A stretch of DNA of 64,000 bases, from the NCBI GenBank assembly GCA_045837725.1, contig JBEWZL010000011.1, forward strand, positions 434,001 through 498,000. Direction: 5' to 3'. This stretch comes from Vermamoeba vermiformis (lineage: Eukaryota). The notes beneath the pieces are model-generated. The model was not told the DNA's origin. It saw nothing but the letters and a program-made list of their open reading frames with translations, and did no database searches. The stretch's first letter is position 1; every line of letters begins with the position of its first letter. The position numbers were made by a program, and so were the translations under genes. This document shows, piece after piece, positions 11,726 to 22,193 of the stretch.

Positions 11726-14700
11726 TTACATCATCAAACAGCGCTTCTTGTCCTTGGCTACTTCAGTCTGATTGAAAAAATGAACAAGAGCAAGATCCAA
11801 CGCTGTATTGATCACTTTTTCAACATTGTAACCGGTCAACGAACTGAACGGAATAAAATCTTTAGCTCCAATTCGTTGACGAAGTTCTTCTGCCTAGCAA
11901 TAGGTATTCATGAGACTCAGAATATTTCATTTTTCTGAGAATTAATTGTTGGATCTTTACCTGCTCATCGGTGATTGCCTTCAAATTTCTTTCCCTCAAT
12001 AGCTCAAGAGTAGAAGGGTTTTCTCTATAATGGGCCATATTTCAGTAAGAGTCACGGCCAAGAACAAACATTGTACTGACCTCAAATCTGCTTTAGATCC
12101 GACGAGCAATCTAACAGCGTCTGGAACGTGATGTGTAACTTCAGGATACCACTATATCGCATTAATATACATTGAGAAGACTTCATTACCTTTTCTGTAA
12201 TGCTCGCGTAAGAAGCCGGTGAGATAAATGAAAACCTGCTATCCAGAGTTAATTCGTCAGATAATTAAATTAATATAGGATTAATAGAACTCGTACATCA
12301 TAATAAAAACATCGGTGCCGGGGTAGCTCAAAGGACCTTTAAAGTACATCCGTTAATTTACCGCCACAGTCTCAATTTTTGTCTACTTACGGAGTCTGTC
12401 ATAGTCTTCGCCACCTCCACAAACGTCCCATAATGAAAATCTAGCACAATAGTCGATTACTAACTTAAATTTCTCTTTAAAGCAGTGCGCATCCAAACTT
12501 ACGCAACCGGGATGTTATTATGAAGGATCGCTATCAATGAAGTATTAACTTCCTATTCTTAAGTAATGGGTGTAATAACTTACGCACTGTAACATTATCA
12601 AAAACAGTTGGAACGTAGTCATCTAAGGAGATCGGATCAGATCAGCCGTTACACGAAGTACCATGAGCACTTACCAGGAAAAACTCCGCTAGTGTATCTC
12701 ATAATGAAGCATGTCTTGCCAACTACATCAATGAAGTTAGTCGATTAGCCAAAGCAACGTAGATCTGATAAAGGTTTGTACCTGCACCGCATCCGACAAC
12801 CATGAGCTTAATCGCCAAGCCTCGCTGTTGTGGTCCAGTTTCCCACGGTATTTTTGGCTTATTTTCGACTTTAACGACTGCATTGTAAGAGCAATTAGTG
12901 TCTGAGTGAGTGTAGTACACTTTTTACGTACGCTTCAGAAGATTTTTGTAATGCTGAGCTGACTGAACCTTCAAATCGGTCATTTTGTCTAAATAAGATA
13001 TTGTTATGATAAAGCGTTACAGAAGGTCACCTACCTGATTCCGGGTTCACGATCAGATCTCGCCACTAAATAAAGTATTAGATATCAGAGTATTATTACA
13101 GTCATCTGTCTTACTAAATAAGGCTCGTCAGTAAGTTGTTTCCATTGTTTGCTGACGGAGTTAGCTCGGGTCAATGAGACCAGATCCAGTTTCTCGAACA
13201 CTTTCATAAGAATTTCCGTCGGTATCATAGGCACGAGATTGATACGAATAGGTATCTTAACGAAGTCATTGAAGGCTAGATCTTCGTTATTGCGTCCACC
13301 GAATACAAGCAAGAAGCCTTGAAGTGTGAGAGCGGAGTGAAAGTAGCGAGGAGCAGGGGTGTTGTGGCTTTTTTTGTCGCTTGTCAAATTCTTCCAGGAC
13401 TTCTTGGAAAGATTGAACGACCACAATTGATTGTATGCTTCTTTGCCATTCGTGCCTCCAAACATGAGAAGTGTTGGTGCCAAGTCACCACCGACCCAAG
13501 TCCACGTGTGACCGTACCTTCATCGCATTAGCTTACAGATACCAATATTCATATTATAATCGTACCTTGCAGATGGTTTAGCACCCTTCACCTTGACTTC
13601 TTTCCATGTATGATTGACTGATATGACTATATTAGTACGATATGACAGTGTCACGAAGTCACTCACTCAAGTCGAATTCCCACACATTGTTATCTGCATC
13701 ACGACCTCCAAACAGCATCATCTTGTCGTGATATATGACACACGCGTGATGGAAGCGAGGAGAAGGTGTGGCTTGTGACTTCGATTTGATGAGTTCCCAC
13801 GAGTGTTGTTGCAAGTCGAACATGAACACTTCGTTGCTCGTGAAGCTATCATTGTCGTAGCCTCCAAACACGACCTGATATATTAAGGATGCGTTACAAT
13901 AGTAGCACTATATGCTTGTTCCAACGTACCATCTTGTCGTTCCAAACACAAGCAGAGTGACCATATCTTCGTGAGGGAACTGTTCCTGTCACTTCAAGTT
14001 TGACCCACTTGTTCTTAGCTGAGATAATAAGCACGTTCCGTTAGTTTTATGCGTTATATTTGCACGTGCTTTGGTGCCCTATTGGTGCACGTGATCGTTA
14101 ACATACTCGTGTCCAAACAATGAACATCATTGTAGTACCCGTTACTCTTGCCGCCTATTTATGCTATGACTTAGCAACATGGTTAATGATAATCATAGTA
14201 TTGTTTACCAAAGACGTAAAGACACTTGTTGAAAACAACAGTTGAATGGAAATGTCTTCCGTGTTCGAACAATTTCATTTCTGAAGGCGGCAAGAATGAA
14301 AGGCTTTCTGTAGTCGTATTAGTATGTTATTATAGAGCCTTGATATGTTATTATCTTACCGAAATCGAATTCAAGAAGCTCTCGACAGAATTGACCCTTC
14401 GCATCTCCTCCTCCTGAAGCGCGGTAAAGTCAAAAAATATTTATTAATATAATATTAATAATTTTTTACTTACCAAGCACATACATCATCGAGAATACGC
14501 CATTCGTCACTTCAAAGGCTTAAATTTGAAAAAAAATTTAATAATTAAATGAGGGAATTAAAAACTTAACTTACGCGGCATAAAATTTTTTTTTCGCGCT
14601 TAAGTTATGTGGCGTAAAAAATTATTCCTCAAATGGGTTTCAAACTTAACTTATCTTTTTTCTCAAATCAACCGCAACCTTGAGCGACGCTCAAAAATTA

Positions 14701-15512
14701 TAGTATTAATAATATAATTAAGTACCAAGGTTATAACAACGTAAGCCACGAAAGTGGTTATGAAAGAAAATTTCAAATAATTCAAGTTCGGATCCGAAAA
14801 TTAGATCCCGCTTTCTCTCGTGCGAGTATGTGTCGACTGGCTCATTTAGCGTTCATAATTATCGTTAGACACTATGAGAGCCTTCGTCTACCATACTCAG
14901 CATTGTGGTGCCTCACTGGAGTTGAGAATAGACTGCGTGACTCAAAAAAAATCATTCGCTTTTCTCCTCAACAACGAGCACCACAAGAGTCGCACCACTC
15001 CAGTTCCATCTTATATATGCAGTAATATAACTATATATATTTTTAAGAATTTTTCTGTCGTGCTAAGCCACCGATCAGCACATCATCTGATCTTCAATTT
15101 TTTTGTCTCTCGTGTCGAGAGCTAGTTCTTAGCCAACGACATAATGTCCTTGTAGTATTTTGTATTTTGAAATGAAAAAATAAACCTTGGCATAACTTTA
15201 CAAAAGAAAAGATAAGTTAAGTTTGAAACGCATTTTTTGGCATAACTTAGCGATTTTTTTTTTTTATGCCGCGTAAGTTAAGTTTTTAATTCCCTCAATT
15301 AGAAAAATACGAAATAATTTTGTAGCGAGTAAGTTATTACCAGTATGTCCATATCTTCCAGTTGGCTCGTATTTTTCGCTTTTCTCGTATAATGTAACGT
15401 TTCTCCACGTATCCGCTTGAATTTCCAATTGTTCTTTCTTCACCACCTGCGAGCCTTTAGCGATCGAGTCACTTTCGTCTTCAGAGTTACTATCATGTTT
15501 GTTGTGTTCCAT
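11726..15512 (-). CDS. Kelch-repeat / F-box / Rho-family GTPase fusion protein, copy 1 (CaaX CLMM)
   Basis: About six Kelch repeats (RYGHT, RHFHS, RFHH..FGG..W), F-box LVPMIPTEILMKVFEKLD...VSKQW, then [60 protein letters not shown], ending KKRCLMM*. Intron 1 carries a MITE. Confidence 0.85.
14551..15296. mobile_element. Non-autonomous TIR DNA transposon (MITE-like, 746 bp) in intron 1 of Kelch-F-box-Rho copy 1
   Basis: Perfect 35-bp TIR GAGGGAATTAAAAACTTAACTTACGCGGCATAAAA plus a second subterminal inverted block (TTTCAAACTTAACTTATCTTTT). AAT duplicated at 14548-14550 and 15297-15299. The equivalent intron of copy 2 (about 18660) lacks the insert and shows the empty site. Confidence 0.92.
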
Positions 15513-22100: not shown

Positions 22101-22193
22101 CCACGTATCCGCTTCAACTTCGAACAGCTGCTCTTTATTTGATGATTGCGCACTCGTTTCTTCAATAGAGCTATTATCGACACTATGCTCCAT
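19109..22193 (-). CDS. Kelch-repeat / F-box / Rho-family GTPase fusion protein, copy 3 (CaaX CMLM)
   Basis: ATG 22193 (MEHSVDNSS). Same Kelch, F-box and Rho exons. LWDVSGGEDYDRL. Ends KRRCMLM*. Confidence 0.85.

Follow-up and report, generated by a model that had tools for sequence, protein, structure and literature searches.

The 64,000-nucleotide stretch of Vermamoeba vermiformis DNA analysed here (contig JBEWZL010000011.1, positions 434,001 to 498,000), referred to below as the window, is eukaryotic DNA of approximately 40% GC with many short introns. Three genes lie head to tail on its minus strand at 11726-22193, with the stop codon of gene 1 ending at 11726 and the ATG of gene 3 at 22193. 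Each gene encodes a Kelch propeller, an F-box and a Rho-type GTPase domain that ends in a CaaX motif. The Kelch-F-box-Rho architecture is real and expressed.

Gene structure and domain architecture

Gene models were assembled from the exon pieces of a three-frame display, joined by their coordinates. An intact open reading frame (ORF) runs through 21 exons in every gene, giving proteins of 635, 635 and 628 amino acids for genes 1, 2 and 3, respectively, and the tandem trio proposed in an initial annotation was thereby located in full. Gene 1 (11726-15512, minus strand) comprises exons 15512-15341, 14518-14474, 14413-14360, 14307-14209, 14154-14107, 14018-13930, 13874-13667, 13617-13566, 13517-13115, 13065-13035, 12988-12932, 12877-12782, 12722-12675, 12622-12584, 12530-12503, 12440-12391, 12336-12297, 12235-12190, 12151-12081, 12024-11961 and 11893-11726, and its 20 introns are all GT-AG. 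Gene 2 (15739-18879, minus strand) comprises exons 18879-18705, 18630-18586, 18535-18482, 18429-18331, 18276-18229, 18141-18053, 17997-17790, 17740-17689, 17640-17238, 17185-17158, 17022-16966, 16911-16816, 16757-16710, 16655-16617, 16559-16532, 16473-16424, 16371-16332, 16265-16220, 16178-16108, 16026-15963 and 15906-15739, with 19 GT-AG introns and a GC-AG intron 19. Gene 3 (19109-22193, minus strand) comprises exons 22193-22037, 21959-21915, 21854-21801, 21748-21650, 21595-21548, 21460-21372, 21307-21100, 21050-20999, 20950-20551, 20498-20471, 20411-20355, 20302-20207, 20147-20100, 20035-19997, 19938-19911, 19855-19806, 19753-19714, 19648-19603, 19556-19486, 19404-19341 and 19276-19109. Across the three genes, 59 of the 60 introns are GT-AG and one is GC-AG. 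Their lengths range from 38 to 135 nucleotides (nt), save for the 822-nt intron 1 of gene 1, a gene whose other introns measure 38-88 nt. A reading of gene 1 with one 109-nt intron over exon 15 was ruled out, as the 28-nt exon 15 is conserved in all three paralogues. A tblastn search with gene 2 found no fourth copy in the 64-kb window.

The spacers between one stop codon and the next ATG measure 226 nt (15513-15738) and 229 nt (18880-19108), and each must accommodate both the 3' end of one gene and the promoter of its neighbour. Intron 1 measures 822 nt in gene 1 compared to 74-77 nt in genes 2 and 3 because of a 756-bp insertion at 14546-15301, which has 40-nt inverted ends that are 98% complementary and a nested pair of 29-nt arms. 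The insertion looks like a miniature inverted-repeat transposable element, and its 35-nt end sequence has no other occurrence within the window. At approximately 17082-17185 in gene 2, exon 10 and the intron upstream of it are tandemly duplicated, with a second copy of the 28-nt exon inside intron 10. The second copy has AG and GT sites of its own and reads WRDLLVVDP compared to WRDLLVMDS. Either copy keeps the frame and both together break it; the two may be a mutually exclusive exon pair. The donor of intron 19 in gene 2 (16107-16108) is the site of the sole GC-AG intron, and GT is present at the same position in genes 1 and 3.

The three proteins share one order of parts: an N-terminal tail of approximately 50 residues, six Kelch blades, an F-box, a linker of 46-47 residues, the Rho domain, a basic stretch and the CaaX motif. 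The F-box begins approximately 10 residues past the last blade and ends at LWRDL in exon 10, and the linker is encoded by exons 10 and 11 and the start of exon 12. Pfam was run on single-exon translations of six window exons. Kelch families matched four of the six (E 1e-15 to 1e-16), and the first and last exons, translated singly, had no Pfam match. The F-box called in the initial annotation was recovered above the gathering score in all three genes, where exon 9 matched PF12937 (F-box-like) at E 7e-11 to 2e-10 (40.5-42.1 bits, gathering cut-off 24.3); PF00646 also matched exon 9 of each gene (31.5-33 bits, cut-off 20.5). No BTB domain was found by Pfam in the six exon translations, nor in the proteins P0001 and P0002, the former a 630-residue relative from JGI.

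In gene 1, the six-bladed propeller lies at 13244-15356 (residues 53-347, from the Pfam Kelch families and a model of P0001). It is followed by the F-box at 13054-13228 (residues 353-394, the end of exon 9 and start of exon 10; PF12937 E 2.3e-10 and PF00646 E 1.5e-7 for exon 9 alone), the linker at 12813-13053 (residues 395-441, colinear with the linker of P0001), the Rho domain at 11789-12812 (residues 442-615, switch II WDVCGGGE at 12407-12430) and the CaaX motif CLMM at 11729-11740, before the stop codon at 11726-11728. The corresponding positions in gene 2 are 17367-18720 for the propeller (residues 54-348), 17174-17351 for the F-box (residues 354-395, PF12937 E 1.5e-10), 15802-16846 for the Rho domain (residues 442-615, switch II WDVCGGGE at 16440-16463) and 15742-15753 for the CaaX motif CMLM. 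In gene 3, the propeller lies at 20680-22052 (residues 48-341), the F-box at 20487-20664 (residues 347-388, PF12937 E 7.3e-11), the Rho domain at 19172-20237 (residues 435-608, switch II WDVSGGGE at 19822-19845) and the CaaX motif CMLM at 19112-19123. All of these features are on the minus strand. The proteins end in KDKKRCLMM (gene 1) or NDKRRCMLM (genes 2 and 3), that is, in a CaaX motif with a basic patch upstream. The polybasic tails of the initial annotation (KKRCLMM in gene 1, KRRCMLM in genes 2 and 3) were therefore present in the translations, as were its RPLSYP, SKADLR and effector loop (YIPTVFDN in gene 3).

The Rho domain of P0001 matched Rac2 and Rac1 at E 1e-59 in an alignment free of gaps over the Rho insert. 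In the P0001 model, the domain matched Rac1 and Rac3 by Foldseek with a template modelling (TM) score of 0.96 and a root-mean-square deviation of 1.0-1.2. The nucleotide-binding motifs are kept, namely GCGAVGKT, the switch I Thr of Y(V/I)PTVFDN, the WD..G of switch II, SKAD and CSSLT. Contrary to what had been claimed for it, the GTPase was nevertheless not complete. The P-loop Asp is replaced by Cys, and switch II reads wdvsgggedydrlr in P0001 compared to wdta-gqedydrlr in Rac, with one extra residue and a Gly at the position of the catalytic Gln. The same stretch reads DVCGGGE in genes 1 and 2 and DVSGGGE in gene 3, so that the Thr-Ala of Rac is replaced by Val-Cys or Val-Ser. The catalytic Gln of the classical Rho members regulated by GTPase-activating proteins was not found in the window genes or in P0001. 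A Ras or Rho domain altered in this way should bind GTP and hardly hydrolyse it. Judged from these residues, the Rho domain is atypical and probably hydrolysis-deficient; the Gly at the catalytic position places it in the atypical Rho class, as that class is described in the relevant text of an amoebozoan Rho review (PMC8305917).

An AlphaFold2 model of P0001 was generated from an alignment of 13 family members and had a mean predicted local distance difference test (pLDDT) score of 75.8. The propeller of the model contains 23 strands in six four-stranded blades (residues 55-345, mostly at pLDDT 80-96) and two additional short N-terminal strands; the linker comes out as disordered, and the Rho domain is predicted with confidence. 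The top Foldseek ranks for the propeller were KLHDC3, KLHDC2, KLHDC10 and the Kelch part of LZTR1 (E 4e-26 to 4e-24). TM scores for the KLHDC2 Kelch-domain and LZTR1 Kelch entries were 0.78-0.83, and LZTR1 itself reached 0.81-0.83 at 23-25% identity. According to their titles, the matching LZTR1 entries are complexes with GDP-bound RIT1, KRAS and MRAS. By sequence, LZTR1 ranked first among solved proteins (E 7.2e-35), followed by KLHDC3 (E 4.7e-31) and, further down, the Kelch part of FBXO42 (E 2.2e-20). All of these proteins (LZTR1, KLHDC2, KLHDC3, KLHDC10 and FBXO42) are substrate receptors of cullin ligases. Pfam, the model and the Foldseek matches to six-bladed propellers together confirmed the roughly six-bladed Kelch domain of the initial annotation, and the parallel it drew to LZTR1 was strengthened, as LZTR1 is the closest solved sequence relative of the Kelch part (E 7e-35).

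Transcription, selection and history of the fusion

The joints of gene 3 were compared with contigs of X1, a public run that is on record only as guessed RNA. The X1 contigs are intron-less and 95-99% identical to the window, and they match introns 1, 9-17 and 20 of gene 3 within 0-2 nt, which amounts to 11 of its 20 introns. The joints at introns 9-17 all have a depth of 32.6 and were attributed to one contig; starting at the F-box exon (exon 9), they cross exons 10 (28 nt) and 11 (57 nt) to reach the Rho exons. Another four X1 joints were placed on a paralogue with nearly identical exons. The introns absent from the X1 contigs have CT..AC ends on the plus strand, as expected from a spliced minus-strand transcript. 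The acceptor of exon 2 was placed from the X1 joint 21959/22037 and from the alignment to P0001. An X1 contig also covers the 3' end of gene 3 down to 19058.

From the F-box exon to the first Rho exon, the reading frame stays open over all three intervening junctions, and gene 1 has no Met from the F-box to the P-loop. P0001 aligned end to end with the gene models, including the linker, at 72-79% identity (76% to exon 9). It contains Kelch (E 3.5e-92), F-box and Ras domains by Pfam and also matched the Beta-prop_ATRN-LZTR1 family. The contigs that carry P0001 and three further 630-residue proteins of the same cluster measure 1954-3046 nt, too short for a gene with 20 introns. P0023, a transcript-derived EukProt protein of 657 amino acids, has the same domain order. 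Two short cluster members that consist of Rho only, P0010 and P0014, start without Met and look like fragments. These results indicated that the fusion is no gene-model artefact and that Kelch, F-box and Rho are carried on one mRNA, with F-box exons spliced into Rho exons as the initial annotation had supposed.

If each unit instead consisted of a Kelch-F-box gene and a separately transcribed Rac gene, the fusion would be only apparent. Such an arrangement could draw on an in-frame Met that lies 12 residues before the first Rho strand in genes 2 and 3, on the spacers of 226 and 229 nt, which indicate that promoters at this locus can be compact, and on the fact that transcript ends are invisible in contigs. 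Against it stand the connected X1 joints 9-10, 10-11 and 11-12 with an exon 10 of just 28 nt, the lack of that Met in gene 1 and P0001, the contigs of 1954-3046 nt that carry P0001 and its three cluster members, and the 657-residue, transcript-derived P0023 with its identical order. The two-gene reading is largely refuted by this evidence, and we regard it as very improbable.

For all pairs of copies, the ratio of nonsynonymous to synonymous substitutions (dN/dS) was 0.16-0.19 in the Kelch part, 0.05-0.14 in the F-box, 0.23-0.31 in the linker and 0.17 in the Rho domain. Purifying selection thus acts on each of the three copies from end to end. Between genes 1 and 2, the synonymous distance (dS) was 0.15 in the Kelch part, 0.87 in the F-box, 1.65 in the linker and 1.32 in the Rho domain. 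The copies are thus mosaics in which dS shifts within exon 9, and genes 2 and 3 remain close to each other in all parts (dS 0.18-0.29). This pattern fits homogenisation of the 5' halves by gene conversion and also the retention of an older 3' half by gene 1.

A tree of 155 Rho domains was built by a quick method that left 69 of the 141 inner branches open. Genes 2 and 3 paired and formed an unresolved group with gene 1 and P0001, and the sole well-supported clade (99) consisted of the window genes, P0001, P0015 with its fragment P0014, and P0176. The Kelch-F-box-Rho label required at least four changes on the starred branches of the tree. Single and several origins of the architecture are both compatible with the Rho tree.

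Relatives of the fusion proteins and other features of the window

A search with the region returned 189 proteins at E <= 0.001. Among the 120 of these matches that were listed, at least eight contain Kelch, F-box and Ras domains. One is an NCBI record from Balamuthia mandrillaris (P0118, 707 amino acids, named RhoG-like), and others are EukProt transcript proteins. The same listed matches include three proteins with Kelch, BTB and Ras and one Arcella protein with Kelch and Ras. When 20 candidates picked from an exhaustive search were checked with Pfam, ten had the order Kelch-F-box-Ras, two had F-box-Ras only, two had Kelch-Ras and no F-box at E 1e-4, one had Ras-Kelch-F-box and five had other architectures.

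Profiles made from the family alignment were then applied to 279 proteins, and both F-box and Rho were found in 28 of them. The order was Kelch-F-box-Rho in 21 (seven from the two clusters nearest the window), F-box-Rho in two and Rho-Kelch-F-box in five. The architecture recurs in no fewer than 14 additional protein clusters, the Balamuthia mandrillaris record among them. A Cys at position -4 is present in 19 of the 21 Kelch-F-box-Rho proteins compared to none of the five with an N-terminal Rho domain. Of the 18 proteins in which switch II was located, 16 lack the catalytic Gln and mostly read DTAGPE; DV(S/C)GGGE is found in the window clade and P0023. P0176 and P0271 have an F-box and a Rho domain and lack Kelch. 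P0045 and P0089 run from Rho to Kelch to BTB (BTB by Pfam), which by domain assignment is a Rho domain on an LZTR1-like body. In P0085 from Arcella intermedia (UniRef), an N-terminal Rac-like domain precedes Kelch; Pfam assigns it Ras and Kelch, and its source name calls it a BTB protein.

The species names attached to relatives with these architectures are amoebozoan only (Balamuthia and Arcella). A weak haptophyte lead came from the Protein Atlas, whose best match (0.85) is a 600-residue cluster of the Ras/LZTR1-propeller/FBX42 type with Haptophyta as its commonest named phylum. Two scans of metagenome contigs, one with P0001 and one with P0004, gave no genomic locus of a relative that tblastn confirmed. 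A search with the mitochondrial-carrier exon returned four proteins, three of them Logan or JGI proteins at 71-75% identity and the fourth at 21%. The architecture had been put forward as one not known to be described, and full-text literature searches indeed found no description of a Kelch-F-box-Rho protein. Public protein sets nevertheless contain it already, unremarked and with generic names (Rac or RhoG), the Balamuthia mandrillaris record being one example. In the available text of a survey of ubiquitin-system domain networks, the F-box is paired with Kelch for plants only and GTPases are not mentioned (PMC4327156), and the words Kelch and F-box are absent from the main text of the amoebozoan Rho phylogeny review (PMC8305917).

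Elsewhere in the window, a DNA transposon ORF of the Harbinger type lies at 23731-24619 on the plus strand (HTH_Tnp_4 and DDE_Tnp_4, E 2.5e-23), and one of the piggyBac type lies at 29747-30955 on the minus strand (DDE_Tnp_1_7, E 3.8e-11, 403-residue open frame). An ORF at 22759-23085 on the plus strand, immediately upstream of gene 3 and in divergent orientation, starts with an LPPEIL-type stretch reminiscent of an F-box and has no Pfam match at E 1e-4. Three sets of long ORFs, at 33893-35093 (minus strand), 51747-52874 (plus strand) and 56580-58040 (plus strand), are alike by eye and are seemingly paralogues of one gene. Two of the three sets lie downstream of CLU-domain ORFs (50066-50368 and 54272-54616), and none of the repeated long ORFs matched a Pfam family at E 1e-4.

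Proposed function and comparison with known systems

It is reasonably likely that the three genes encode lipid-anchored substrate receptors of the SCF (Skp1-Cul1-F-box) ligase, approximately 630 residues in length, with a locked Rho module built in. The F-box would dock on Skp1. A CaaX motif that ends in Met is of the farnesyl type. The C-terminal Cys would thus be farnesylated and, together with the basic stretch, would keep the ligase anchored at a membrane. The Rho domain would stay GTP-bound, since the residues that contact nucleotide and Mg are kept together with a Rac-like effector loop and the catalytic Gln is lost. Rather than cycling as a switch, it would offer a constant Rac-type surface for targeting or for baiting proteins that bind Rac. 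The top face of the Kelch propeller would bind a ubiquitination target or degron as a second binding site. The Kelch-less proteins P0176 and P0271 fit a role of Rho as a binding module, as the domain occupies the usual position of the substrate domain in F-box proteins. The initial annotation had likewise read these proteins as prenylated SCF adaptors with a Rho bait, and the single mRNA, the F-box, the CaaX motif and the LZTR1-like Kelch part agree with that reading. The part of it that became doubtful, with the catalytic Gln missing, is the suggestion that nucleotide state gates ubiquitination through a normal GTP/GDP cycle.

Several observations count against the receptor reading. RNA support comes from gene 3 and from a run whose RNA nature is only guessed; in gene 1, X1 gives the Rho exons a depth of 0, and their just two spliced reads come from another species (X11, joint 12438/12506). 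The RNA runs X9-X11 as a whole derive from another organism, 90-99% alike and mostly below 95%, with 13-22 reads each. The Met upstream of the first Rho-domain strand in genes 2 and 3, absent from gene 1 and P0001, and the blindness of contigs to transcript ends make an extra Rho-only mRNA possible. The three F-box helices of the P0001 model have a moderate pLDDT of approximately 57-62. The solved LZTR1 Kelch complexes contain GDP-bound Ras-family proteins, by their entry titles, and would be a poor fit with a GTP-locked partner if the Kelch part bound its own Rho domain. FBXO42 and the plant F-box-Kelch proteins have the F-box before the Kelch domain; the window proteins are reversed, with Kelch before the F-box and the GTPase after it.

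The main rival to the receptor reading holds that the protein is a constitutively active, atypical membrane Rac whose Kelch-F-box part recruits SCF to ubiquitinate the protein itself or its sister molecules, so that the off-switch would be protein level and not GTP hydrolysis. This would resemble the action of LZTR1 on Ras, only in cis, and the auto-ubiquitination proposed for RhoBTB. The nearest relative of the Kelch part is the Kelch domain of LZTR1, solved bound to KRAS, MRAS and RIT1, and the catalytic Gln is lost in 16 of 18 family members; a GTPase unable to switch itself off needs another route. Relatives that combine Rho, Kelch and BTB (P0045 and P0089, with P0085 a BTB protein by its source name) place Rho on an LZTR1-type architecture, and a RhoBTB review describes auto-ubiquitination as well as an auto-inhibited form (PMC4931677). 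That Kelch and Rho touch is, however, a supposition. The predicted complex of these two parts of P0001 scored 0.00 in a run without controls, which speaks neither for nor against binding. The GDP forms in the LZTR1 complexes also conflict with a Rho domain predicted to be GTP-locked, and Kelch-less F-box-Rho proteins such as P0176 and P0271 exist. Self-limitation of this kind appears somewhat unlikely. The GTPase might alternatively have decayed to a pseudo-GTPase that is a mere folded, prenylated membrane tag on an ordinary Kelch-type F-box protein. The altered switch II, with its insertion, missing Gln and exchange of Thr-Ala for Val-Cys or Val-Ser, the Cys in place of the P-loop Asp, and the retention of CaaX only where Rho is C-terminal (19 of 21 compared to 0 of 5) are consistent with a passive anchor. 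The nucleotide-binding residues are nonetheless kept (GK(T/S), switch I Thr, switch II Asp and Gly, SKAD), dN/dS of the Rho domain is as low as that of Kelch (0.17), and the five proteins with an N-terminal Rho and no CaaX still retain the domain, which argues that anchoring is not its sole role. Decay to a tag is quite improbable.

Beyond the SCF receptor reading, these proteins could belong to an unrecognised protist class of cullin-ligase receptors that carry their GTPase in cis, composed of an LZTR1-type Kelch part, a hydrolysis-dead Rho domain and an adaptor, which is an F-box (Cul1) in the window proteins and a BTB (Cul3) in sister proteins. In this scheme, the Rho domain would bind to or release the Kelch face, and binding of a guanine nucleotide exchange factor, an effector or a membrane, not GTP hydrolysis, would open the ligase. 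This proposal is speculative and we consider it unlikely as it stands. If true, it would represent a second, independent solution to the task of RhoBTB, with a small GTPase fused to the type of adaptor that degrades GTPases. Rho or Ras-family GTPases are known to meet cullin ligases in RhoBTB, in which Rho is fused to a Cul3 adaptor, and in LZTR1, a Kelch-BTB protein that removes Ras-family GTPases. A third way is seen at this locus and in its family, where an atypical Rac is joined to an LZTR1-like propeller and an F-box, by the Cul1 route and with the lipid anchor retained. Should function follow form here, a locked Rho domain would be the core around which ubiquitin ligases targeted to membranes have arisen repeatedly in protists, and the family would offer a natural system to study how a GTPase domain steers a ligase and how non-hydrolysing GTPases are switched off.

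Each part of the window proteins has counterparts in known systems. KLHDC2, KLHDC3 and KLHDC10, the Cul2 C-degron receptors, gave the best Foldseek propeller matches; they differ in docking on Elongin B/C via a BC/Cul2 box rather than an F-box and have no GTPase domain. The Kelch-type F-box proteins, human FBXO42 and the plant F-box-Kelch proteins, also hold an F-box and Kelch in one protein. Rnd and RhoH have a Rho fold in which the catalytic Gln is replaced, and they are prenylated. The window proteins share the replaced Gln with them, whereas Rnd and RhoH are single-domain proteins with no Kelch or F-box. LZTR1 has the closest Kelch part by sequence and likewise connects a small GTPase to a cullin adaptor and a Kelch propeller. 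It contains BTB-BACK pairs where the window proteins have an F-box, and it meets its GTPase in trans and not within the chain. As they contain no BTB-BACK, the window proteins are not LZTR1. The RhoBTB proteins (RhoBTB1-3 of animals and RacA of Dictyostelium) similarly fuse an atypical Rho domain in one chain to a cullin-ligase adaptor. In the RhoBTB review's account of these proteins, the Rho part deviates from the classical GTPase cycle and RhoBTB3 ends in CaaX (PMC4931677). RhoBTB has an N-terminal Rho domain, two BTB domains and a BACK-like end and acts with Cul3; in contrast, the window proteins have a C-terminal Rho domain, an F-box for the Cul1 route and an added Kelch propeller. With no BTB and with Rho at the C-terminus, they are not members of RhoBTB but its F-box counterpart.

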